From the NCBI GenBank assembly GCA_016187335.1, contig JACPJW010000001.1, forward strand, positions 384,001 through 448,000: a stretch of DNA of 64,000 bases. The letters run 5' to 3'. Below the pieces are notes generated by a model. It was not told the DNA's origin. It did no database searches and saw only the letters and a program-made list of their open reading frames with translations. This DNA is from Candidatus Aenigmatarchaeota archaeon (GTDB lineage: Archaea; Aenigmatarchaeota; Aenigmatarchaeia; GW2011-AR5). Made by a program: the position numbers and the translations under genes. This document shows positions 18,770-45,767 of this stretch, piece by piece (position 1 is the stretch's first letter; each line of letters starts with the position of its first letter).

Positions 18770-18878
18770 ACTTCCTAAAAGAACATAAGTTCTTTTGGGT
18801 CTTGGAACGCTTTGCTTTCCAAAGATTTCCAAAAAGTTTCATCAAAGCAACTTTTCAAAAAAGTTGCATCAAAAAGGG
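18766..18878. repeat. Composite of palindromic repeat units between minD and pheT
   Basis: AAAAGAAC-ATAA-GTTCTTTT, a degenerate CCAAAAAGTTTCATCAAA and GCAACTTTTCAAAAAAGTTGCATCAAAAAGGG. Confidence 0.75.
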
Positions 18879-26504: not shown

Positions 26505-27113
26505 TCAAGGCTTATGTCTTGTAATAGCGTAGTAGGTCACGTCTCCTTCGTTATCCACAATCGCCCATAACATCCTTGCTCGTATGTTGTGGGCAAGCCT
26601 GACAGAGCGCGAAAGTTCCTGGAACGACATGGTGAAATCCTCCGGCACCGAGAAAACTATCCATTTCGTGTGCTCTTTGGCGGATTTCGGCCCTTTCTTC
26701 AGCTGCACGCCCCTTTCATACACGCGGAAGTCGCAGCCGAACTTGAATCCTGTCCTGACAAGCAGCCCGCGCTCCCTGAGGTCTTCGTAAACGCGGTAGC
26801 GCTCCGTGAACCTTTTGTCCAGAGCAGAAGAATGCCTGAACAGCTCGTCGAATGTTATTTGTTTCTTGCTGCTGTCAAAGACCCTTATCCTGCCGCGCTT
26901 CAGCAGCAGGCACGCTTCTACCAGAGCCAGTTCAAGCCTGTCAGGAAGAATTTTGCCGTAATAGCCGGGCTCGTAAACGCTTTCAAAGTTTTTCCATGCA
27001 ACTGCTTTGTTCTCTTCCAGCGTTGTATCCACAACTTCTTTGAAAGGCTCCGGCTCCACGTATTCCGGTCTATCCTCTTCAGAATCATGCTTTTTCTTGG
27101 ACATTTTGAACAC
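26505..27113 (-). CDS. endA: tRNA splicing endonuclease (catalytic-type subunit)
   Basis: LALVEACLL, YEDLRERG, TGFKFGCDFRVY, H, VRLAH, AIVDNEGDVTYY. Confidence 0.94.
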   Translation of the reverse strand: MFKMSKKKHDSEEDRPEYVEPEPFKEVVDTTLEENKAVAWKNFESVYEPGYYGKILPDRLELALVEACLLLKRGRIRVFDSSKKQITFDELFRHSSALDKRFTERYRVYEDLRERGLLVRTGFKFGCDFRVYERGVQLKKGPKSAKEHTKWIVFSVPEDFTMSFQELSRSVRLAHNIRARMLWAIVDNEGDVTYYAITRHKP

Positions 27114-27248: not shown

Positions 27249-27812
27249 TTAAGCGTAGTTTGTCTCGCCCGTTGCGCAATTGACGGTCAGATTTCCGCTG
27301 CATATGATTTTGTCATTCTCGATGCGCCACTGCTTCACCGTTGCGCTGTCCACATCGGATATTGTGCAGCATATGGATTTCACTGAGTTTTTCACAAGGT
27401 TCTTGTAGCCTATTGCAGATGCAGACTGGTTGGATTTTATGCTGTTTAACTCATTTCTGCATTCGTTCAGGCTGCTTTCCGACGAAGTTCTCAGGCTTGA
27501 CAAATCGCCCTCGCACTTGCCAAGGCTTGCCGAATTACTCTGCAGATTCCCGGAACACTCGTTATAAAGAGCCGTTTTGTCATTAAGGCTTTTTGCGCAA
27601 TCCACGCGCGCAGTTGAAATAATCTTCAGGTCCTCTTTGGTGTTGTTGAGCTCCGATTCAAGCTTTGTGGTGTAGGTCGTGTAGCCTGTAAAAACAGTTC
27701 CTACGGAATAAAGCACAAAAACAACAAGCACGGCAATAAGCGCGATTCCTATTTTTTTAGTATCTATATTCATCTTGCCCGGCGGCGCGTATTCGTAACC
27801 CATAATTACCAT
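27249..27812 (-). CDS. Membrane-anchored extracellular coiled-coil protein with periodic Cys
   Basis: N-terminal transmembrane helix; heptad region with Cys spaced roughly every 14 residues. Confidence 0.7.
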   Translation of the reverse strand: MVIMGYEYAPPGKMNIDTKKIGIALIAVLVVFVLYSVGTVFTGYTTYTTKLESELNNTKEDLKIISTARVDCAKSLNDKTALYNECSGNLQSNSASLGKCEGDLSSLRTSSESSLNECRNELNSIKSNQSASAIGYKNLVKNSVKSICCTISDVDSATVKQWRIENDKIICSGNLTVNCATGETNYA

Positions 27813-27880
27813 TTCGCCGGGGCGATATTAATAGGTTGCCTTTAGAAAGCAGCAAAGAAAGCGTAATGCGGGTGTGATTT

Positions 27881-27912
27881 AACCCTTTTAGAAAAAGCGT
27901 CACGGAAAAAGA
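27881..27912. repeat. Repeat in the tRNA-Phe trailer, similar to the tRNA-Val intron
   Basis: AACCCTTTTAGAAAAAGCGTCACGGAAAAAGA vs 49013-49043 GACCCTTTAGAAAAAGCGTCTACGAAAAGGG. Confidence 0.75.
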
Positions 27913-28149
27913 TGGGAAGGGAGGGATTTCCAGAACTTTTCATCGTTTTCCTCGAAGAACATCAGTTCTTCGGTATCTCGGAGAACTATCGTTCTCCGCA
28001 GATGATCGAACTTTTCTGAAAAGTTCGTTTGGACCCTCGACATTCCCGGCGTAGCACCAATCAAGTGCTATGCTCCACGGTCTTCAGCCGTGTGCTCTCC
28101 CAGGCTTTGCCAACCGAAAAAATCATTCTCGGTTTTGAGCTACCTTCCC
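27913..28149 (-). tRNA. tRNA-Phe(GAA) with three introns: 14/15 (28106-28135), about 44/45 (28043-28074) and 59/60 (27927-28027)
   Basis: Acceptor GGGAAGG/CCTTCCC; anticodon arm CACGG-CTGAAGA-CCGTG; BHB TCCA/TGGA perfect; AGCT/GGCA one mismatch; variable-region BHB imperfect; spliced length 74 nt. Confidence 0.88.
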
Positions 28150-28568
28150 ATGGATGGAAAATATACTTTTTTCGTTTTCAAAGCTTCCAACGCTATTTTT
28201 ACCGGTTCGAAAAGCGGTTTAGGCAGATTTTTCAGGTCAAACCACTTAAGTTCGCTGATATTTTCTTTGTCGACAATCCTTGGCTTGCCGGATTTTATTT
28301 TCGCAGTAAATTCCACATCAACGTAGTGTTTTTTGCCGTATTTCATTATGTCGCTGATGCACAGCAGCCTTAGATTACCGACTTCAAGTCCGACCTCTTC
28401 CTTTACCTCTCTCTTGGCGCATTCTTCCAGCGTCTCGCCAAATTCAACATGGCCGCCGAACCCTGACCATTCTCCTTCGCCGTGAGAGCCCTTTCTCCTG
28501 CCCAGCAAAATCTTGTTGCCCTGTATTATCTGGCATCCTACGCCTACCAGAGGCCTTTCCTTTCTCAT
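28140..28568 (-). CDS. NUDIX hydrolase (MTH1/NUDT15-like) between tRNA-Asn and tRNA-Phe
   Basis: GGHVEFGETLEECAKREVKEEVG; start MRKERP 4 nt after tRNA-Asn; stop inside the tRNA-Phe 5' end. Confidence 0.88.
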   Translation of the reverse strand: MRKERPLVGVGCQIIQGNKILLGRRKGSHGEGEWSGFGGHVEFGETLEECAKREVKEEVGLEVGNLRLLCISDIMKYGKKHYVDVEFTAKIKSGKPRIVDKENISELKWFDLKNLPKPLFEPVKIALEALKTKKVYFPSMGR

Positions 28569-28571
28569 GAG

Positions 28572-28690
28572 CGCCCCGGGACGGACTCGAACCGTCGACC
28601 TTCTGCAATTAGTCAAGAAATCCAAAAACTTGCTTGACTGTTAACAGCCAGACGCTTTAGGCGTCTATCTACCTGCTGAGCTACCAGGGC
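28572..28690 (-). tRNA. tRNA-Asn(GUU) with introns at 22/23 (28657-28668) and 39/40 (28606-28639)
   Basis: Acceptor GCCCTGG/CCGGGGC; helices AGGT/GCCT and GTTA/TAAT with 3-nt bulges; splicing restores TCTGG-CTGTTAA-CCAGA. Confidence 0.92.
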
Positions 28691-28727
28691 ATGCGTAGAA
28701 ATAATCTGAGAATTAATATTTAAAACG

Positions 28728-29576
28728 TTAGAAGAAAGGCCTTATTACAAGCGCGGTTCCTGCGATAATGAACAATGCGCCAATGAGCCTTCTTATCAGG
28801 TCTCCTTCCTTGTGGAACAGGTATCCGCCGAGAACGCTTATGACAATGCTCATCTGAACTACTATGGCTACGTTGCTCACGTCCGTCAAATTATACGCCG
28901 TTATCTGCGAGAAATACCCGGCGGCAGCCAGCAAAGAAACGGCTATCATAGGCATTTTCATCTTATGAAATGAAGCCTTAACTCTGTCGGCCCTGCCAAG
29001 CGCGGCTGGGGTAAGTATCATTGTAGGAAAAAGAAATACGAGAAATCCGTAGAATGCCGGGGTGAAATAAGCCAGACCTGTTTTGTCGATTACCGCTACC
29101 AAGCCCATAAGAAATGCGTTAATCAAAGTCAGAATTATACCCTTCTTGGAAATCCTTTTCAGCGGGTCTTTGTGCCATGCAAGGATTACAGCGCCTATCA
29201 GCAGCAAAAAGACGCCGAGGAACTTGTTAATCGTTAGCGATTCCTTCAGAATCAGCATAGAAAATATCAGCGTGAATAAAACGCTGGTCTTGGACAGCGG
29301 ATCCCTTACAGAAATATCAGTATGCTTGTAAGCTTCGAGGCCCGTCACGTTGGCCAAAACGTACAATGAACTCGCAAGCAGGACAATCAGCCACGCAATG
29401 TAGCTGGGCGGGAAGCTGGCTTCCCTCACAAACAGGAGAAAAAAGAAAGCCGCTGAAAAGACGTTGAAGAACCATGCATACACTATGGTGTTTTCCGTCT
29501 TCATTATATGCTTCTGGACAAGATTCCCCGCGCCGTAGCAAAGAGCCGCGAAAAGCGCGAGCAGTTCCCATGACAT
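28728..29576 (-). CDS. EamA/DMT-family transporter
   Basis: Ten hydrophobic segments arranged as two repeats. Confidence 0.9.
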   Translation of the reverse strand: MSWELLALFAALCYGAGNLVQKHIMKTENTIVYAWFFNVFSAAFFFLLFVREASFPPSYIAWLIVLLASSLYVLANVTGLEAYKHTDISVRDPLSKTSVLFTLIFSMLILKESLTINKFLGVFLLLIGAVILAWHKDPLKRISKKGIILTLINAFLMGLVAVIDKTGLAYFTPAFYGFLVFLFPTMILTPAALGRADRVKASFHKMKMPMIAVSLLAAAGYFSQITAYNLTDVSNVAIVVQMSIVISVLGGYLFHKEGDLIRRLIGALFIIAGTALVIRPFF

Positions 29577-29600
29577 TAGAATACCTTGAGAAACAGGCTT

Positions 29601-32315
29601 TTAATCCAGGAAATCGCCCTTCTTCAGCTTATTAGGAAGGTAGGTCTCGGACATGAACTTAAGGCCGCGGTGCGACAAAGCTTCTATCTCGGCTTTTATT
29701 CCTTTTTCTATCATCAGGTTGATTTCCTTCTTCCATCTCGGGTTCTTGCTAAACCACTCGTAGTTGAGTAGTTCCTTCGCGCGCTTTATGTCAACTTCCT
29801 TGCATTTTATTGTCGCTTTTTTCAGGTCATACTCAAATATATCCGATATAGTAAGACCTATGTATCTGGCTTCCGGTGTCGCAATCCGATCTGAGACGTG
29901 AGCTAGGCTTATGGATCCGGATTTGATAACTGAATAAATATAGAAGCCGTACGAATCACTGTCGCAGCATACATATACAGGCAGCTTGTGATCTTGGTTC
30001 AGCCTTTGTATCAGCAGCCTTGTTCCGCGTGATGGCTGCCCGCCTGTGCCGATCAAAACGCACTTCTGTTTCTGCCAGAACTTGTCCTCATGAAGCCGCT
30101 CAAAGCCTGCGTTCTTCTCCACGACCAAGACAAAGTCCGCGTTGACTTTTTTGAAATCTATTTCATCCACGGTGCTCGGTATGGACCATCCCCCGCTTCC
30201 GAGCTTTGACCAGTCTATGCTGTCGCCGCGGTCTTCAATAATAACGTTGCCGGCGACAATGCCCTTTCTGTCGGTGGTGAGGTGCAATTGCTCGCGCAGA
30301 ACGTCTATAGCCACTTCTATGTCAACAATTATAGGGTCAGAATTATGTAGAATTATAAATCCATTACCACCAATGAAATTCTCAGTAGGTTCGACTGAAA
30401 GATCAACTGTATATTCAGGAGTTGGAGCGTCATTTATTTCAACTATCTTGTCCCACATAATGTCACTATTAGCTATGGTTTCAAGTTCGGATACCAGCTG
30501 TAAATCTGGAGAATACTTTTGTAACTGCATCAAGGCGTTATATAACACAGGTCTGCTTATCGATTCGTTTTTATTTTCTATATAACTCCATGAAAAGTGG
30601 TTCCATTCAACACGATCCTTACAGGACTTTCTGACTTTTTCTACCAATTTCCCTATGTTTGGTATCCTGTCAGAAGATACGTCGTGTTTCCGCGGCTTAC
30701 TGAATCTTTTATCATTGATTATTTCAGCCATCAATTTTACATCTTCTCTATTACCTATTCTAATTTCATATGCGTTATGGTGATTAGGATTTTGGACGCT
30801 TCTTTTATAGCGATAAATTCTTGCAAAAATTCCAAGCCTAAGCAGTAAAAATACCAATCCGTTAGCCAGCTTTTCGCTAGTTGTGTGGTACCTTAATCTA
30901 AATTTTGGAAGAAAAGTACTACCGTCTCCAAGCATAAACGAGAAAAGAAACATCTGTATACAATTTTCAGGTGAATCAAGCAAAACACGCGGTATTTCTT
31001 TATTCCATGCTCTGCAAGGCTTATACCCAATAACATAAGTCAATATGTGACTCAAAGTATCGTAACCTACATTTAGCTTATAAACTCCATCTTTACCTAA
31101 ACGTATCTTTCCGCTTACACAGCTTTTACCAAATGATTTTTCAAAGCAAATCATAAACTGCTTGAGAAGCTCTGAAGATTTGTTAGAAATAGCTACATGG
31201 TATGATTTTCGTGGTTCAAAAAGTGAATGCGAGCCTTCGCTCAAAAGAAGCCCTAGTACAAATCCTAAATTTTCATCTTTTTTTATTAAAGCGTTGTAAT
31301 AGTTCTTTGCACCCCTTCTTCCAATTTTTATTTTAGGAAGCAGATCTGAAATATCAATTCCGGTCGTTTTTACGACTTTAATTGGAATTGTTTTCCAGTT
31401 AATCCAGTTGGCTTTAACGTCAGACCATACATTCTTGTATCCGAAGTCATTTGAAATATTTTTTAGCTTATCATTACCTATAAGCCTGATTATTTCTTTT
31501 ATCGTGTCTTTATCCGATTTTATGTAAAATTCTTTTAATACACTTTCAGGGCAATTTTCAATAAGCTTTTCTAAAATATTTATATGATCAGAATTAACAC
31601 CGACTTCTATTTTTCTTGGGATGGCTATCCAGTCTCCTATCTTTAGTTCTGATGTTTTTATGGATACAGGTTTTCCTTCAGAATTTGTAAACAAGCTGTG
31701 AGATTTAGTTACTTTGACACGCCTGCCACTTGATGTGATTATTTCCTTTACAATGTTAGGCGGGTGTTTCATTACCATCAGAACTTTCTGCTCCTTAATC
31801 CTGTAATTTTCATCGAAAGCGCAAACCTTAATGTCGCCAACTAAAATCTTCTTTTTATTACCATCATCATAAATAATTCTCCCAAATTTTTCAGCATGGT
31901 CTACGACTTCGCTTGCTTGAGCTATTCTGAGTTCATCGTTTATTCTTACCAACAAAGGTTCATCGGGGCATACAGACTCGCTCTGCTCGTCAAAGGTATT
32001 CTCGTTGCTGTCCGGCAGTGTCCTTTTCAGGTTGTAGTACATGTCTCGGATGCTGGCATGGATTTTCTCATCAATGAGCGATTTACAGAAAGCACCGACC
32101 ATAAGCGTCTGCATGAACTTCTTGGAGTGCGCGACGTTGAAGTAATACCTTTTTGCTGTCTTGGTGCCAAGCCTGAGCTGGCCGGTTTTCCTGTCGTAAA
32201 CTACGTTGGAAAGAGCGCGTATTGGTATCTCTATGTTCGGGTTCTCGCCTTTCTCTATGTCATGCACGACTTTCTTGCCCAGAACATTCAGTTCCTTTCT
32301 TACGTCTTTTTCCAT
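29601..32315 (-). CDS. top6A: DNA topoisomerase VI subunit A, intein-containing
   Basis: IRDMYY catalytic Tyr region, VVEKNAGFERL, TGGQPSRGTR, DSDSYG toprim, KAEIEAL. Confidence 0.95.
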   Translation of the reverse strand: MEKDVRKELNVLGKKVVHDIEKGENPNIEIPIRALSNVVYDRKTGQLRLGTKTAKRYYFNVAHSKKFMQTLMVGAFCKSLIDEKIHASIRDMYYNLKRTLPDSNENTFDEQSESVCPDEPLLVRINDELRIAQASEVVDHAEKFGRIIYDDGNKKKILVGDIKVCAFDENYRIKEQKVLMVMKHPPNIVKEIITSSGRRVKVTKSHSLFTNSEGKPVSIKTSELKIGDWIAIPRKIEVGVNSDHINILEKLIENCPESVLKEFYIKSDKDTIKEIIRLIGNDKLKNISNDFGYKNVWSDVKANWINWKTIPIKVVKTTGIDISDLLPKIKIGRRGAKNYYNALIKKDENLGFVLGLLLSEGSHSLFEPRKSYHVAISNKSSELLKQFMICFEKSFGKSCVSGKIRLGKDGVYKLNVGYDTLSHILTYVIGYKPCRAWNKEIPRVLLDSPENCIQMFLFSFMLGDGSTFLPKFRLRYHTTSEKLANGLVFLLLRLGIFARIYRYKRSVQNPNHHNAYEIRIGNREDVKLMAEIINDKRFSKPRKHDVSSDRIPNIGKLVEKVRKSCKDRVEWNHFSWSYIENKNESISRPVLYNALMQLQKYSPDLQLVSELETIANSDIMWDKIVEINDAPTPEYTVDLSVEPTENFIGGNGFIILHNSDPIIVDIEVAIDVLREQLHLTTDRKGIVAGNVIIEDRGDSIDWSKLGSGGWSIPSTVDEIDFKKVNADFVLVVEKNAGFERLHEDKFWQKQKCVLIGTGGQPSRGTRLLIQRLNQDHKLPVYVCCDSDSYGFYIYSVIKSGSISLAHVSDRIATPEARYIGLTISDIFEYDLKKATIKCKEVDIKRAKELLNYEWFSKNPRWKKEINLMIEKGIKAEIEALSHRGLKFMSETYLPNKLKKGDFLD
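30342..31976 (-). mobile_element. Intein (545 aa) with LAGLIDADG homing endonuclease in Top6A
   Basis: DEQSE|SVCPDEP...GFIILHN|SDPII; VKVTKSHSLF block B; LGLLLSEGS and FMLGDGS motifs; AT-rich. Confidence 0.93.
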
Positions 32316-32353: not shown

Positions 32354-34006
32354 CTATTCTTCTTCAGCTTCTTCAGGCTTTTCTTTTTTAGGGTTCGACT
32401 GCGCAGCCGCCAGCTGCGGCGGCTGGACCGTTTCCAGCTCTTCGAAATCTTTCATCTTGTTCTTGTTTTCTATTATGGACAGCAGCTTCTTTTCTATAAC
32501 AGCATCCTTGTCGCCCGTGAGAACGGACAGCGACGAGGCAACCTCCTTTGCGTACCTTTCAAAAATCTGTATCCTGCGTTTCTGCTCGCCGGCGCGCCGC
32601 TTTCCCGAAAGGTAGCGGGACAGCTCACGTGCCGCGTCCTGTATTGCCAGCTTCATTTCCTTGACAATTTCCGGGTACGGCGCAATGGCTTCTTTGCTTT
32701 CCGAAACGAAGGGCACCCACACGGACGACATGTGTATTACGAGAATCATGGGGCCTGATGGCAGCGAGTTCTTCGGATGCTGCAAGCCATACCGCTTCCA
32801 GTCCACGTCCTTGGCAGCTTCCGTCGTTGCGCAAGCGCCTGCTTGGTAGAGAAGAGGCACCCTGTTTGCAATTCTTATCACGTCTATCTGCTCTTCCAAA
32901 GCGCCTACATTGCCGAAAACGATGCCGATTTCAATCTGGAAAGGCATGCCGCGATAAACTTCACTTTCCCTTCCAATCACGGTTATAAATTCAGCCTGCG
33001 GATATTCCTTTTTCAGGCTTTTCTCGAGCTCTGCTTTCCCTACAGGCGACAGGCAATCCAAAGGAGGCCTTTGTATCTTGACTTTCTGCATGGCGCTGAG
33101 CAGTTTTTCTATTCCCGCCCTGTCAAGCGCCTGGGGCTTTCCGTTCGGATCTATTTTTGCCGTTTTGCATATTTCCTTTGCTGTCTGCGACCCCACGGAA
33201 GAGAACTCGTTTACAAGAAATGACTGCACGGTCTTTGAATTTGTTTTTGACAGGAACCGCTGCAGAATTCCGAACTCAACGCCGTAGGGGTGCATTCTCA
33301 TTTCCTTCGGCGGCTTCGGGAGATCGTCAAAGCTCCTTGGAAATGCCATCTTTGTTCCGTCGGGGGCGTGATAATTTATCTTTGCGAAAGGGTTTGAGAT
33401 GCTCGTCTGCTTGAGATAGTCGTCAACGCCCTGCGTTTTCCTGTAGCGCCCGACAACATCAATTTCAACTTTAACGCCGCGCTCCAGCCCGTCTTCCAGC
33501 GTTTCTTCCTTCACGATTTCCGGCTCGTTCTTGCTTGTGTTGATAAAAAGCTCGTAGTAACTGACCTTTTTCTTTTCGTCGGTCCTGGACCATACCTTTG
33601 TGGGGGAGCCTGTTGTAAGCTGCGAATAGAGCACCACAGCGGAAATTCCTATGCCCTGCTGGCCTCTTGACTGGCGAAGACGGTGGAACTTGCTGCCATA
33701 AAGCAGTTTTCCGAAAATTCTGGGCACTTGTTCTTTCACGATGCCCGGTCCGTTGTCCTGTACGGTCACGCGGAAGCGGTCCTCCCCGGTCTGCTTTATT
33801 TTCACGTTGATGTCCGGCAGAATGCCTGCTTCCTCGCATGCGTCTAGGGAGTTGTCCACGGCTTCCTTTACGGTCATCAGCAGCGCTTTTGTCGGGTTGT
33901 CAAAGCCCAAGAGATGCTTGTTTTTTTCAAAGAACTCGCTTATTGATATTTCCTTCTGCTCTTTAGCAAACTCCTCAGCGGTTTTTTTCGGGGATTTGTC
34001 AGACAT
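32354..34006 (-). CDS. top6B: DNA topoisomerase VI subunit B
   Basis: EAVDNSLDA, DNGPG, GSKFH, RGQQGIG GHKL motifs; ANRVPL. Confidence 0.97.
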   Translation of the reverse strand: MSDKSPKKTAEEFAKEQKEISISEFFEKNKHLLGFDNPTKALLMTVKEAVDNSLDACEEAGILPDINVKIKQTGEDRFRVTVQDNGPGIVKEQVPRIFGKLLYGSKFHRLRQSRGQQGIGISAVVLYSQLTTGSPTKVWSRTDEKKKVSYYELFINTSKNEPEIVKEETLEDGLERGVKVEIDVVGRYRKTQGVDDYLKQTSISNPFAKINYHAPDGTKMAFPRSFDDLPKPPKEMRMHPYGVEFGILQRFLSKTNSKTVQSFLVNEFSSVGSQTAKEICKTAKIDPNGKPQALDRAGIEKLLSAMQKVKIQRPPLDCLSPVGKAELEKSLKKEYPQAEFITVIGRESEVYRGMPFQIEIGIVFGNVGALEEQIDVIRIANRVPLLYQAGACATTEAAKDVDWKRYGLQHPKNSLPSGPMILVIHMSSVWVPFVSESKEAIAPYPEIVKEMKLAIQDAARELSRYLSGKRRAGEQKRRIQIFERYAKEVASSLSVLTGDKDAVIEKKLLSIIENKNKMKDFEELETVQPPQLAAAQSNPKKEKPEEAEEE

Positions 34007-34036
34007 TATTCCGGACTCCTAAGGTTTGAAAGTCGC

Positions 34037-34057
34037 CGAAACTTCTCTGAAGTTTCG
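34037..34057. repeat. Palindrome related to the repeat family
   Basis: CGAAACTTC-TCT-GAAGTTTCG. Confidence 0.55.
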
Positions 34058-34090
34058 TGCGAAATGCTTTTGCCTGCAATGCATTTTATT

Positions 34091-34585
34091 TTATACGAGG
34101 AGATGAATTCTTTTTATGCCAATGGATTTGTAAACACTTTTATGCGAGTGCCCTATAATTAATCTCTCAACGGCGCCTCTGGCCTTTTCTGCATCCTCGT
34201 ATCTGCCTATAATCGAGACAGTTCTGCCGTAAACGGATATGAACGTCTTCGTCATAATCTCTATGTTTTTTCTGGCCTTGCCTCTGGTTCCAATTATCCT
34301 TGAGCGAACCCTTTTTAATGCTTTTTCGTTTTTCGGAAGCGGTATCATGTCAAGGGTGTATTCCTCGTCCAGCAGGTACATGGACCTCTCAGGAGAAAAC
34401 CCGCGCCCTATGGCCTTCACTATGTTTTCCGCGTTCATTACGCGGAGCGCATCGCCCTCTATTTCAACATCTTCATTCACAGATATTTTTACTTCTGCAA
34501 GATTTTCTATCTCCTTTTTTACCAGGCCGCCTTTTCCTATCAGAACGGCAAGTCTCTCTTTTGGTATCTTGACAACCCTGAGCAT
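34091..34585 (-). CDS. KH-domain RNA-processing protein (Dim2/Pno1/Krr1 homolog)
   Basis: LIGKGG, KAIGRGFSPE, IIGTRGK. Confidence 0.92.
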   Translation of the reverse strand: MLRVVKIPKERLAVLIGKGGLVKKEIENLAEVKISVNEDVEIEGDALRVMNAENIVKAIGRGFSPERSMYLLDEEYTLDMIPLPKNEKALKRVRSRIIGTRGKARKNIEIMTKTFISVYGRTVSIIGRYEDAEKARGAVERLIIGHSHKSVYKSIGIKRIHLLV

Positions 34586-35505: not shown

Positions 35506-35550
35506 GCGATGAAATTTGCTGTAAAGTATAAGAACACATGACGGATACAT

Positions 35551-35640
35551 TTTTTTGACAGAACTTTTTCCTAAAAAGTTCTTTTTGATTAAACTTTTTC
35601 CTAAAAAGTTCTTTTTGATTAAACTTTTTCCTAAAAAGTT
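35551..35640. repeat. Three tandem 30-bp palindromic repeat units
   Basis: (C/T)TTTTTGA(TTA/CAG)AACTTTTTCCTAAAAAGTT x3; units 2 and 3 identical. Confidence 0.95.
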
Positions 35641-39075: not shown

Positions 39076-40909
39076 TCCTCTGCAGCAAGAACTCGGGAGC
39101 AGTATAGAACAAATTGAATACGGAACCTAATTTCTGGTAGTCGTTGAGGTTTTTTTCAGCAGACCACTTCAGGACATTTGATTTTCTTTTTATGTCCTCG
39201 TTTATTTCTTCTTCTGATGCTCCGGTTGTTTCGGAGATTTTCTTAAGCAGCGAACTCTTGTTAACTACAGTGTAGGAATCATTTTTGGGGTTCCACCTGA
39301 AAACCTCGTTGGATACCACGGAATTGCTTCTCCTGTCGTACCCGAGGATTTCTATTACAGAAGAAATCCTCCTCTTGTAGACGCGTCCGTACTTCACCCT
39401 TTTGACGAATATTATCACGTCCAGGTTCTGTATAAGCCCTATAGGAAGGCTTATCGGCGGCGTTGAAAGCCTGTCCATAAGCTTGTTGAAATTTTCCGCA
39501 TGTATTGTCGACAGGCCGGCATGGCCCACGGCCATCTGCTGGAAAAGAACGTACGCTTCGCGCCCGCGGACCTCGCCGACGATTATGTAGTCAGGCCTCT
39601 GCCTCAGTGATTCTCTGAGCAATTCAAACATGTCAACCTTGCCTTCTTCCGACAGCGGAGTTCTTGCCACTTCCGATATCCAGTGGGAATGCGGCAGCCT
39701 CAGTTCCGGCGTGTCCTCTATGCTCACTATTTTCATCTGCGGCTTGATGAACAGGGAAAGCGCGTTGAGGAGCGACGTCTTTCCGGTAGCAGTTCCCCCG
39801 GATATGAGCAGGCTCTGGTTGTGCTCTATAAGGTACCAGAAATACGAGAGCATCTTCAGGTCGCACGTCCCGAACTTTACCATGTCCACGGGTGTTAGCG
39901 GCTTTTCCGTGAACATTCTTATGGTGAAATTGCTGCCGTGCATTGCAACGTCGCTGCTCAGGGTTGCCTGGACCCTTGAGCCGTCGGGCAGCGCCCCGTC
40001 AAGGAGCGGCTTCGCGACAGAGATAAGCTTTCCGCACCTTTCGGCAAGCTTGTTTGCAAAGGAATCAAGGGAGTCCTTGTCGGAGAACTTTATGTTAGTC
40101 CTCATTGAGCCGAGCCGCGGGTCCCTGTGGTAAATAAAAATAGGGATGTTCATGCCGTCGCAGGATATGTCCTCTATCTGCTTGTCCTTCAGGAGGGGCT
40201 CTATTTTTTCCAGCCCGACAAAATCCCTTATAACGTAATACATGAGGACGTCTACATCCACGTCAGGCCCGGCGCGGAAATAAGAGAGCGCACCCTCAAA
40301 TATTTTTTTGATGTAGCTCGTGGCGTCGCCCCTTACTTCCCCGAAGTTCACGTCAATCTTTTCCTGTACATACTCCTTTATTTCCCTGAGCAGCGCAGAG
40401 CTTTTCTCGTCAAGCTGCGGCTCAACAATGTCGTAGACAATTTCATTTATTTTCGGATTGAAGTAAATATGGGCGTAAGCGAAGACGCGCTCGCCCTTTT
40501 TCGGCTCCGAGGGTATTAGCGGATATGTGATGTTGATTCTTCTCATCTCAATTGTTTCTTCAGTCATGCCGACGCTTTCAATAGTCGGGGACTCGGCGGT
40601 TTCAGGTATTTTTATCCCGCCTTTTACGAATTCCTTCATATCGTAATCTTCCGTCAGTATAACAGGTATGGGGCCTGCCGGAAGCGCTGCAGCAGGCGGC
40701 GTTGAATACCCGCGGAATTCTGAAGAAGAATCAGGCTGCGAAGAATGCGGGCTGATATCCTGGGAAATTATACCGGGTTGTTCTTTGGCTGGCTGGGTTT
40801 TCACTTTTAGCCTTATTTTCTTCAGGCCGGTGGAAGTTTTCATGGAAATTAACACGGTCTTTTCCGGCCATGCTTCCTTTTTAGCGAGTTTTATCTTCAT
40901 TCCAAACAC
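39062..40909 (-). CDS. Type IV pilus assembly ATPase (VirB11/ArlI family)
   Basis: GGTATGKTS, SIEDTPEL, RQRPDYIIVGEVRG, STIHA. Confidence 0.95.
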   Translation of the reverse strand: MFGMKIKLAKKEAWPEKTVLISMKTSTGLKKIRLKVKTQPAKEQPGIISQDISPHSSQPDSSSEFRGYSTPPAAALPAGPIPVILTEDYDMKEFVKGGIKIPETAESPTIESVGMTEETIEMRRINITYPLIPSEPKKGERVFAYAHIYFNPKINEIVYDIVEPQLDEKSSALLREIKEYVQEKIDVNFGEVRGDATSYIKKIFEGALSYFRAGPDVDVDVLMYYVIRDFVGLEKIEPLLKDKQIEDISCDGMNIPIFIYHRDPRLGSMRTNIKFSDKDSLDSFANKLAERCGKLISVAKPLLDGALPDGSRVQATLSSDVAMHGSNFTIRMFTEKPLTPVDMVKFGTCDLKMLSYFWYLIEHNQSLLISGGTATGKTSLLNALSLFIKPQMKIVSIEDTPELRLPHSHWISEVARTPLSEEGKVDMFELLRESLRQRPDYIIVGEVRGREAYVLFQQMAVGHAGLSTIHAENFNKLMDRLSTPPISLPIGLIQNLDVIIFVKRVKYGRVYKRRISSVIEILGYDRRSNSVVSNEVFRWNPKNDSYTVVNKSSLLKKISETTGASEEEINEDIKRKSNVLKWSAEKNLNDYQKLGSVFNLFYTAPEFLLQRIEYA

Positions 40910-42709: not shown

Positions 42710-42746
42710 CTTTTATTATATTTGCAAAAGCGGTATAAATAGGTTT

Positions 42747-43064
42747 TCACGATCTCAAAGAGCTTCGCTCTTTGAGAATGTCCCCGAAAGCCCGGCAGAA
42801 ATATTCCTTTGCACGCATAACGGCTTTCTTGCCCTCAGGCGTCAGCGAGTACACAATTATTTTGCCCCTTTTATCCCCCTTTATGAGGCCCTTGCTTTTC
42901 ATGTCCTTCAGCGCAGGGTATATCGTTCCTGCCTTGGGCTTCTCGCCCCGGCGCTTCCCTATCTCCCCGGCAAGCTGCTCGCCGTTCATCTCCTTCTTTG
43001 ACAGAAGCCATAAAACCTGGAAGGACAGCATCCCCCGCATGTCGCAGCCGTGATCATGTTTCAT
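42747..43064 (-). CDS. PadR-family transcriptional regulator
   Basis: MRGMLSFQVLWLL, GTIYPALK, YSLTPEG. Confidence 0.9.
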   Translation of the reverse strand: MKHDHGCDMRGMLSFQVLWLLSKKEMNGEQLAGEIGKRRGEKPKAGTIYPALKDMKSKGLIKGDKRGKIIVYSLTPEGKKAVMRAKEYFCRAFGDILKERSSLRS

Positions 43065-44019: not shown

Positions 44020-44122
44020 AGAACTCTGAGAAGTTCTGCCCTTTTGGTTAAACTCCTTCGAAGAACAAAGTTCTTCGAGGTCTCAGAGAAACTTCGTTTC
44101 TCTGCAGATTTTGGAAAAGTTT
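44020..44122. repeat. Composite multi-hairpin intergenic element homologous to the tRNA-Phe 59/60 intron
   Basis: CGAAGAAC-AAA-GTTCTTCG and CAGAGAAAC-TTC-GTTTCTCTG followed by CAGAT, collinear with 27950-28003. Confidence 0.85.
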
Positions 44123-45767
44123 ACTCCATGTCCATGTCTTCGCCGCCGGGCATTCCGCCAGGGCCGCCTCTCGGCATGCCGCCGCCGGACTTTGACGTTA
44201 TGACGTCGTCTATGCGCAGTATCATTTCCGCCGCTTCCGTTGCGGACTTGATGGCCTGCGTCTTTATCTTCAGCGGCTCGACGACGCCGTTCTTCTTCAT
44301 ATCCTCTACTTTTCCGTTGACAACATCTATGCCGTAAGCGGATTTTCCTTTGTCGTGCAGCGTCCTTAACTCTACAAGAAGATCAATAGGATCGCGTCCA
44401 GTGCTTTCAGCCAGCGTTCTTGGAATTATTTCAACAGCCTCGGCAAACGAATTTATTGCCAGCTGTTCTCTTCCGCCGACGGATTCTGCGTATTCCCTGA
44501 GCTTGCGGGCGATCTCTATCTCTACGGCTCCGCCGCCGTAGACAACCTTGCCTACTTCCAGGGCAGAAATAACACCCAGGACTGCGTCGTCCATTGCGCG
44601 CTTCGCCTCGTCAACAACATGCTCCGTTCCGCCGCGCACAAGAATGCTTACTGATTTAGGATCCTTGCAGTCGCGGACAAAGATCATCTCTTCGCCGGCA
44701 ATCTTCTGCTCCTCAACTAATCCGGCATAGCCTAAATCATCCTTTGATATCTCTTCCAGGTTCGAAACGATGTTGGCGCCCGTGGCTTTTGCCAGCTTTT
44801 CCATGTCGCTTTTCTTCACGCGCCTTGCAGCTATAGTGCCTTCCTTGGCAAGATAATGCTGCGCTAAATCATCAATGCCTTTCTGGCAGAAAACAACATT
44901 GCATCCTGTCGCTGACACCTTCTTTACCATTTCCTTGAGCATCTTTGTTTCCTGCTCGAGAAACGCCTGAAGCTGGTCAGGTGATGTTATTCTTATTTCC
45001 GCGTTCGTTTCGGTTTCCTTTACCTCCAGAGCCACATCCAGCAGCACTATTTTCGCATCCTTGACGCGCTTTGGCATGTTAGGATGCACAACTTCCTTGT
45101 CAATGACAATTCCCTTTATCAGTTCCGTGTCGTCAATTGAGCCGCCCTGCTTCTTCTCTATTTTCACATCGTCCTTGTCGATGACAACCTTGCCGTTGTC
45201 CTGTTCCGCGACCATCTTGACAGCTTCAACGGCTAATTTCGCCAGGGATTCCTTTGCCGCTTCGCCGCCCTTCCCTGTCATTGCTGTCATCGCTATTTTC
45301 TGCAGCATTTCCGTGTCATTAATGTCAATGTCTTCGCCTATTTCCTGCAAAACTTCCAGCGCTTTTGTCTTCGAAAGCCTGTAACCCCTTACGATCATCG
45401 TGGGATGTATTTCCTGCTCCAGAAGACCCTCTGCTTTCTTCAGCAATTCACCAGCAAGAATTACTGCCGTGGTCGTGCCGTCGCCGACCTCGTCTTCCTG
45501 CGTCTTCGCCACTTCAACAATCATCTTTGCGGCAGGATGCTCTATTTCCATGTCCTCCAGTATTGTCGCGCCGTCGTTGGTTATGGTGACGTCACCTATA
45601 GAATTAACAAGCATCTTGTCCATGCCGCGCGGGCCCAGCGTAGTCCTTACAGACTCAGCAACGGCTTTCGCTGCCATTATGTTGCGCGACTGCGCGTCCC
45701 TTCCAGTGTTCCTCAAAGTGCCTTCCGGCAGGATGAATATAGGCTGTCCGCCAAGCTGGTTCACCAT
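44121..45767 (-). CDS. ths: Thermosome (group II chaperonin)
   Basis: [37 protein letters not shown] tail. Confidence 0.98.

Follow-up and report, generated by a model that had tools for sequence, protein, structure and literature searches.

A double-hairpin repeat as probable passive cargo of a tRNA-Phe T-loop intron in an Aenigmatarchaeota genome

Results

A three-intron tRNA-Phe gene and the 3′ flank of a thermosome gene hold related double hairpins

We analyzed a 64,000-nucleotide (nt) stretch of an Aenigmatarchaeota genome, hereafter the window (G000:C2:384001-448000), in which a double-hairpin repeat (DH) lies both inside an intron of the tRNA-Phe(GAA) gene and between genes, 3′ of a thermosome gene. 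The genome (G000; 1.01 Mb in two contigs, C1 and C2; 47% GC; 90.8% complete) comes from a groundwater setting, in that sequencing runs containing window DNA are groundwater metagenomes and the thermosome loci nearest to that of the window belong to Candidatus Aenigmatarchaeota groundwater metagenome-assembled genomes. Coordinates without a contig prefix are those of the window. We denote as copy A the DH at 27949–28002 and as copy B that at 44054–44108; an earlier model-generated reading of the window (the original prediction) had placed them at 27950–28003 and 44056–44109. A separate hairpin-plus-tail repeat that adjoins DH at both sites is here named H1.

The tRNA-Phe(GAA) gene spans 237 nt on the minus strand (27913–28149), with acceptor stem GGGAAGG/CCTTCCC and discriminator A at 27913. 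Neither ARAGORN nor Rfam finds it on the raw sequence; ARAGORN calls tRNA-Phe(gaa) once three inserts of ~29, ~32, and 101 nt are removed in silico. A second "Phe" call, obtained at C2:254229 by ARAGORN with introns allowed, is actually tRNA-Leu(GAG), and the gene at 28149–27913 is therefore the only tRNA-Phe(GAA) found in the genome. The putative D-loop intron (~29 nt, 28107–28135, minus strand) has boundaries that are ambiguous within A runs, and its removal restores the D-arm GCUCA-GCCUGGGA-GAGC. Removal of the putative variable-loop intron (~32 nt, 28043–28074, minus strand, boundaries approximate) gives the variable loop GUGUC and the ARAGORN call. The third and longest intron, 101 nt at position 59/60 of the T-loop (28027–27927, minus strand), was delimited by its minimum-free-energy fold and by in silico splicing, and it is this intron that harbors copy A.

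The minimum-free-energy fold of 28042–27917 contains a full hBHBh' form of the bulge–helix–bulge (BHB) motif (z = −5.9), which comprises the T-stem GAGGG/CCCUC, a 4-bp helix UCCA/UGGA, 3-nt bulges AAC and AAU, and a 10-bp helix formed by GAACUUUUC and GAAAAGUUC, inside which the two DH hairpins branch. A cut after the second bulge nucleotide yields a 7-nt T-loop, UCCAAAU. The predicted structure thus displays BHB geometry, removal of the intron restores the cloverleaf, and the genome encodes the tRNA splicing endonuclease EndA (26505–27113, minus strand; Pfam tRNA_int_endo_N and tRNA_int_endo, E = 1.5e-27). This endonuclease gene, the only one of its kind in the genome, is located 0.8 kb from tRNA-Phe, and its product is expected to excise the intron together with its DH cargo. 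A 187-aa open reading frame (ORF) between EndA and tRNA-Phe was considered as a second endonuclease subunit; it has no similarity to EndA and no Pfam match.

In RNA sense, the intron starts with an H1 hairpin, GAACUUUUC-AG-AAAAGUUC, followed by GAUCA (28003–28026, minus strand), the 5′ arm of which is the intron-side helix of the BHB motif in both sequence and fold. Copy A comes next, and the fold assigns to the 3′ end of the intron (27929–27948, minus strand) AAACGAU, a second H1 3′ arm, GAAAAGUUC, and UGGA, which pairs with T-loop nucleotides 54 to 57. Position 55 of the spliced T-loop is a C (UCCAAAU), where all 11 relatives displayed have UUCAAAU; a tRNA without U55 is unusual. The intron base opposite C55 is G (UGGA; 28030–28033 and 27929–27932), and so the change is compensated within the BHB helix.

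Copy B is intergenic and begins just past the stop codon of the thermosome gene (44121–45767, minus strand; Cpn60_TCP1). It scores 64.5 bits on the plus strand and 43.4 bits on the minus strand in the covariance model described below, and it splits an H1 in two: the 5′ arm and loop, RNA sense UAAACUUUUCCAAAA (44109–44123, minus strand), overlap the thermosome stop codon at 44121–44123, and the 3′ arm and tail, RNA sense GUUUAACCAAAAGG, occupy 44040–44053 (minus strand). A further hairpin, AGAACTCTGAGAAGTTCT (44020–44037), follows and is itself followed by a T-run in the thermosome sense; this hairpin often lies beside the composite and recurs next to DH copies at C1:7906, C2:83901, C2:653367, and C2:894297. 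Copy B is missing after the thermosome stop codon in relative G001, the thermosome of which shares its C-terminus with that of G000 and is 91% identical at the protein level, and likewise in 17 further relatives displayed; what follows the stop codon there is unrelated.

Copies A and B are members of one repeat family

A global alignment of copies A and B has 45 of 56 columns identical. Their local alignment score of 50 compares with 14.6 ± 2.7 for dinucleotide shuffles and with 12.8 ± 3.1 for shuffles that retain two perfect hairpins with equal arm and loop lengths and composition; none of the 5000 shuffles of either kind reaches 50. In single-sequence nhmmer searches of the whole 1.01-Mb genome, each copy retrieves the other, B with A as query at E = 0.018 and A with B as query at E = 0.019, and a copy at C2:77645-77697 is intermediate between the two (E = 8e-4 to A and 1e-8 to B). 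The pair is absent from blastn-short output. Hairpin 1 has the same 8-bp core stem in both copies. The hairpin 2 stem is CGGAGAAC/GTTCTCCG in A and CAGAGAAAC/GTTTCTCTG in B, which corresponds to one G–C to A–T double change and one extra A–T pair, and both loops differ.

The original prediction held that the tRNA-Phe intron is collinear with the intergenic element, and that the two share ancestry and are selected for structure. The likeness withstands both shuffle controls, including comparison with composition-matched random hairpins, and an alignment E-value of ~0.02, obtained reciprocally, agrees with it; the stem changes and varying loops that it described are present in hairpin 2. Of the two strings that it quoted, the first had dropped one C, since position 27950 begins CCTCGAAG (CCTCG, not CTCG), and both otherwise lie where it placed them. 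Collinearity holds for the 54-nt cargo and not for the parts of the intron that make up the splice signal, which derive from another repeat module. Common ancestry of A and B is borne out by a family of about 50 sites, by its conserved unpaired parts, and by intermediate copies that link the two.

Members of the DH family are ~54 nt in length, with stems of 8 to 9 bp; hairpin 1 is joined by a GGGATCT linker to hairpin 2, which has the opposite polarity. Sequence is conserved in the unpaired parts, i.e., TTCC ahead of hairpin 1, the linker, and GCAGAT behind hairpin 2. The base of each hairpin, which includes one bulged nucleotide, is likewise conserved, and the upper stem is variable. Iterated nhmmer found 44 sites in G000, and a covariance model built from 33 full copies (R1) gives 93 matches with both strands counted, or ~50 sites; both strands score because DH is a pseudo-palindrome. 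Two of these sites are in the window besides A and B: a full copy in a split H1, 2 nt after a gene end (18772–18825, plus strand; C2:402772-402825), retrieved by the family search, and a partial copy (42739–42778, minus strand; C2:426739-426778) retrieved by nhmmer and the covariance model. DH has no Rfam match at the gathering score; in the window, Rfam matches are to tRNAs only, with sub-threshold chance hits at A and B.

Across the family, 97.2% of hairpin 1 cells are paired, compared with 81.9% in shuffles and 27 to 53% in slid controls. Both sides have changed in seven of ten pairs (63 cells), and the covariation score of 0.53 compares with 0.22 in shuffles (0/500 reach it). Hairpin 2 was misaligned by MAFFT because its stem length is 8 or 9 bp, and realignment to the covariance model was still imperfect, with both strands mixed; therefore, we parsed the hairpins with our own script, which is fitted to structure and hence inflates the percentage paired. 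With this limit, hairpin 2 has 26 distinct stems of 7 to 9 contiguous pairs, in which G–T makes up 2 of 211 pairs, and every one of the 20 distinct 7-bp stem tops pairs, even though identity among the 5′ arms is only 57%. Structure is thus preserved at the level of the family, and to that extent the structural part of the original prediction is supported; the A–B pair alone amounts to two compensatory events.

Outside predicted coding sequences (CDS), which occupy 82% of the genome, lie 48 of 50 DH sites (p = 2e-33). Relative to the upstream gene, 19 copies are in sense and 20 in antisense orientation, and tandem, convergent, and divergent spacers are used approximately as available. Of the two copies within predicted ORFs (C2:192749-192785 and C2:83212-83262), one sits close to the 5′ end of an ORF of 587 aa, the true start of which is probably downstream, and the other, in an ORF of 307 aa, may be an in-frame insertion. 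Weaker DH copies lie in introns of two further tRNAs, at C2:522828 (D-loop) and C2:256722. A full DH at C2:210375-210425 (L050) sits beside a CCCTTTT..AAAAGCG..CGGAA module in the region that the archaeal 23S rRNA model matches and may be part of an rRNA intron or expansion. Some copies are embedded in near-exactly duplicated repeats of 150 to 300 nt, one pair of them inverted, and the genome therefore holds larger composite repeats (C2:128004-128056 and C2:820196-820248; C2:205485-205591 and C2:897429-897535; C2:132798 and C2:136812).

DH was found in 31 genomes across 41 relatives, with 0 to ~124 matches each. Among 151 sampled genomes of the phylum, it was found in only 14, belonging to its own order, where its presence is patchy, and to two other families of the class, and the idea of a pan-archaeal module was dropped accordingly.

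DH is a discrete 54-nt unit

Three independent comparisons, of paralogous introns, of related populations, and of other genera, delimit the same unit. A 46-nt T-loop intron at C2:104251 is 41/44 identical to the DH-bearing intron of tRNA-Asp described below, with a single 54-nt gap that is exactly DH. In two runs of one 2024 groundwater study (X8 and X9), contigs compared at an 85% likeness threshold join 27948 to 28003 and omit the 54 nt of copy A (27949–28002; ends TC..GA), a gap that is read from contig placement, the sequence between the joined ends not having been read. With these 54 nt gone, the junction reads GAUCA^AAACG, and a plain H1-type intron remains. Synteny of the X9 contig extends from ~27546 to 30233, at ~88 to 90% likeness. 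DH flanks in other genera are unrelated.

The X8 and X9 contigs omit or replace further blocks of ~95 to 115 nt, at 34011–34125, 35534–35632, 32872–32967, and 40698–40812, and presence or absence of repeats seems common between these populations.

H1 and recently mobile H1::DH composites

H1 consists of a GAACTTTTC..GAAAAGTTC hairpin and a ATCAAAACGG tail. The genome harbors 119 H1-like palindromes, 91 of them with the tail, compared with 0 to 1 in shuffles. DH occurs in two H1 contexts. In one, it follows the ATCA of the H1 tail (ATCA^AAAC), as in the T-loop introns and about six intergenic copies; in the other, it lies inside the H1 3′ arm, as in copy B and six others (seven split-H1 copies in all).

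The 88-nt H1::DH composite found at C2:77615-77702 has a 100% identical counterpart in G001, a member of the same genus (G001:C79:19442-19529; L158:1501-1588). The flanks are unrelated in the two genomes, and each copy occupies a spacer that runs from one stop codon to the following start codon. Synteny links the G001 flanks, at only 67 to 80% identity, to C1:14253-17105 of G000, where the composite is absent. The H1::DH composite has therefore been recently mobile, and copy B is 88% identical to it over 73 nt. Terminal inverted repeats of the 88-nt unit could be supplied by the H1 arms.

The DH-bearing intron recurs in tRNA-Ala and tRNA-Asp

A scan for intron architecture found eight T-loop 59/60 introns in the genome. 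That of tRNA-Ala(UGC) (C2:~236580-236680), a tRNA with acceptor stem GGGCTGG/CCAGTCC and a G3:U70 pair, is 95/101 identical to the Phe intron, and that of tRNA-Asp(GUC) (C2:~716685-716782) is 83/98 identical. A DH-bearing intron is thus common to tRNA-Phe, tRNA-Ala, and tRNA-Asp, and so has been copied or homogenized between T-loops; with at least 80% identity in two or more isotypes of one genome, these introns qualify as a transposed-intron family. The 4-nt pairing between intron and T-loop varies with the host across the three sister introns (UGGA/UCCA, UGAA/UUCA, and CGAA/UUCG), and because the four intron bases change in step with the host T-loop, the splice motif is kept in each.

The exon block 28105–28075 (31 nt) was matched in 17 relatives. 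A 59/60 intron is absent from all 11 tRNA-Phe orthologues displayed, most of which are intronless; relative G015 has a D-loop intron at the same position as that of G000. Full-length homologues of the intron were absent from G001, G004, G012, G014, and G015, which hold module-sized pieces only. Judged against the orthologues displayed, the T-loop intron of tRNA-Phe is a recent gain.

Neighboring features of the tRNA-Phe locus

In two relatives, G007 (L078, once) and G029 (L077, twice), an intact intronless tRNA-Phe precedes an inverted T-arm piece, GGGTTCA, a double hairpin resembling DH, and a duplicated tRNA 3′ end that runs from AATCCC to the discriminator. This arrangement resembles a scar left by recombination or integration, with the T-loop containing a double hairpin.

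Directly 3′ of tRNA-Phe in the window, positions 27873–27910 are the reverse complement of a recurrent module, CCCTTTT-loop-AAAAGCGTCACGGAAAAA, which recurs as the body of several further tRNA introns, among them those in T-loops at C2:455584, C2:464656, and C2:717627. On the other side, a NUDIX ORF (28140–28625, minus strand) extends into the first bases of tRNA-Phe (28140–28149), with its stop codon in the D-stem; its upstream end overlaps a two-intron tRNA at 28572–28690, and so its true start is further downstream. A candidate C/D-box or K-turn (TGATGA...CTGA beside H1) was dropped on reading, since it has the wrong orientation in intron RNA and lacks tandem G–A pairs.

Discussion

A passive passenger of BHB introns

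Our preferred reading, to which we assign a probability of about 0.72, is that DH is a non-coding, non-autonomous palindromic repeat that spreads at the DNA level and is passive cargo of the introns that contain it. DH would spread or turn over as DNA either alone, by nesting into H1, or as a passenger of H1::DH composites, and it would survive only in harmless places, namely intergenic DNA and the interior of BHB introns. The tRNA-Phe splice signal would consist of the H1 arms and the four intron bases that pair with T-loop nucleotides 54 to 57, and DH would be transcribed and then excised by the splicing endonuclease as part of the intron, without contributing to splicing. Since the splice signal derives from H1, a different repeat, DH looks like passive cargo. 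Copy B would be a DH nested in the 3′ arm of an H1 that had landed directly after the thermosome stop codon. The symmetric orientation of the copies and their near-pure Watson–Crick stems fit a strand-symmetric, DNA-level repeat, and movement by inter-copy recombination, by template switching at palindromes, or by some recombinase is possible.

Several observations weigh against this reading. Conservation of the bulges and linker could reflect a constraint on DH from a protein or an RNA-level function. No target-site duplication was seen at the two identical 88-nt copies or at DH borders. The Y1/RAYT transposase (PF01797) was found neither in G000 nor in the copy-rich relatives G004, G012, and G018, and the same holds for TnpB (PF07282) in G000 and in copy-rich relatives such as these three; Y1 transposase and TnpB do not track DH copy number, DDE transposases and integrases not having been searched. 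The empty site in X8 and X9 is represented by contigs only, placed at the 85% likeness threshold with a shorter side of 37 to 38 nt, and its junction was found neither in two metagenome scans (with the junction pattern and with an X9 loose-end 30-mer) nor in a pattern search of 44 family genomes. Furthermore, filled and empty forms fit insertion and precise deletion alike; we infer insertion as the direction of change.

Other explanations of DH and of its compensatory changes

Selection for RNA folding is a different account, in which DH is a functional RNA structure, either a 3′ stem-loop that stabilizes or terminates mRNAs or a protein-binding hairpin pair, and the intron copy would serve the folding of the intron or pre-tRNA or the stability of the excised circle. 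It draws on the proximity of many copies to a stop codon (0, 2, 3, 5, 13, and 15 nt), on the hairpin and T-run that follow copy B in the thermosome sense, on strong stem covariation, and on the conservation of the bulges and linker, with a T–G position near the base of hairpin 1 that is strand specific. We consider this account unlikely, given that orientation relative to the upstream gene is random (19 versus 20) and that G–U pairs are nearly absent (1 to 2%). Divergent, promoter-only spacers, moreover, hold six to eight of 43 to 48 sites against 24% expected, which is near availability, so that the specific proposal of a terminator or 3′ stabilizer was rejected for want of any bias in orientation or by intergenic class. 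DH is also dispensable in paralogous and orthologous introns, matches no Rfam family, and ranges in close relatives from no matches to over 100. Still less favored is a DNA site for a recombinase or other DNA-binding protein that enters T-loops by site-specific recombination and leaves a duplicated tRNA 3′ end. The G007 and G029 arrays speak for such a site, with their inverted T-arm piece, double hairpin, and duplicated end, and match the direct-repeat signature of the model of Sugahara et al. 2012 (PMC3293823); the whole DH is also pseudo-palindromic with a conserved base and linker, like dimer-binding sites. However, the three DH-bearing introns of G000 lack duplicated tRNA ends, their DH lies in the H1 tail rather than at the exon junction, most copies are far from tRNA genes, and no candidate recombinase has been linked to the family, integrase families not having been searched.

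A further alternative concerns only the clause that the hairpins are selected for structure and is compatible with a passively carried DNA repeat: the compensatory pattern may be mutational, produced by intrastrand template switching or by gene conversion between arms or copies. This we regard as possible, if doubtful. Stems are nearly perfectly Watson–Crick with few G–T intermediates, the added pair in copy B is present on both arms at once, and the sister introns look homogenized (95/101 identical). Yet single-base bulges and a mismatch persist uncorrected at the hairpin bases, and stems differ freely between copies, so that inter-copy conversion is limited. Selection and palindrome-templated correction are not told apart by these data, and neither are constraint at the RNA level and constraint at the DNA level. 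Finally, chance or convergence of AT-rich GAAC/GTTC hairpins could have been invoked for the likeness of A and B, since blastn-short does not report the pair and similar palindromes are abundant in the genome; it is hardly credible in view of 0/5000 composition- and hairpin-matched shuffles reaching the score, a reciprocal nhmmer E of ~0.02, and unpaired linker and flanks that are conserved over ~50 copies.

Beyond the passive carriage of DH, we raise tentatively the idea that archaeal BHB introns are both created and enlarged by H1 and DH, which would make these modules a prokaryotic equivalent of "introner" elements. Inverted-repeat arms, once transcribed, would become the intron-side BHB helix, and further modules such as DH would nest inside. 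As the arms of the element form the BHB helix, EndA would erase the insertion from tRNA, rRNA, and other RNAs. If true, this would supply the missing arrival route for non-canonical archaeal introns.

Relation to known systems

Near-identical introns in different tRNAs of Thermoproteales have been called intron transposition, with a mechanism described as unknown (Fujishima et al. 2010, via PMC4090602). The introns studied here share with those BHB families near-identity (83 to 94%) between different isotypes of one genome, a non-canonical position, the BHB motif, and a gain that is recent relative to sister lineages. They differ in having a DPANN archaeon of the Aenigmatarchaeota as host, in an interior that traces to a family of intergenic repeats, and in the existence of empty forms. 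For Asgard archaea, a 2026 survey that used the Thermoproteales transposed introns as positive control found no arrival route for tRNA introns (bioRxiv 10.64898/2026.10.13.758758).

With sequences of the repetitive extragenic palindromic (REP) class, bacterial interspersed mosaic elements (BIME), and REP doublets forming hairpins (REPIN), DH has in common short extragenic palindromes in tens of copies, opposite-polarity doublets, stems kept by compensatory change, and copy numbers that vary widely between relatives (PMC3116915, PMC2817692, and PMC3733652). In contrast to REP and REPIN, the DH genome lacks a RAYT/Y1 transposase, and DH lacks the GTAG or CGTC tag (PMC3733652), the consensus ends being TTCCTC... 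and ...GCAGAT with no such tag in the alignment; the host is an archaeon, and copies are found also in tRNA introns and in the 23S rRNA gene span. Transposable elements of the miniature inverted-repeat type (MITEs; PMC10969869) resemble DH in being small, non-coding, structured, and multicopy, in having identical copies at non-homologous sites, and in nesting, whereas for DH neither target-site duplication, nor parent insertion sequence, nor transposase was found, and its units of 54 to 88 nt are smaller than most MITEs. The tRNA disruption of Caldiarchaeum (Sugahara et al. 2012, PMC3293823) shares strain-level heterogeneity of tRNA loci in intron content and tRNA-end duplicates that adjoin inserted sequence (here in relatives G007 and G029); the insert there is 1.9 kb with a recombinase gene, whereas the variable unit here is a geneless 54 nt.

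What is new here is the recognition of DH as a separate family with its covariation statistics and two insertion contexts, together with the paralogous and population-level empty sites and the 88-nt composite that is identical in two genomes. A link between the interior of a tRNA intron and an intergenic repeat family was not described in the literature that we searched.

Implications for the growth of archaeal tRNA introns

The arrival and growth of archaeal tRNA introns is the wider question on which these observations bear. Here, the interior of an intron is traced base by base to intergenic repeats, with filled and empty forms among paralogous introns and related natural populations, which suggests that archaeal tRNA introns can be enlarged when small mobile palindromic DNA enters them. 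In practical terms, standard tRNA finders miss the tRNA-Phe of this genome entirely. Nested insertion of small palindromic DNA into introns becomes directly testable, and the system is compact: a 1-Mb genome with ~50 DH copies, ~120 H1 copies, and one EndA gene, in which one can ask whether the repeats also found new introns.

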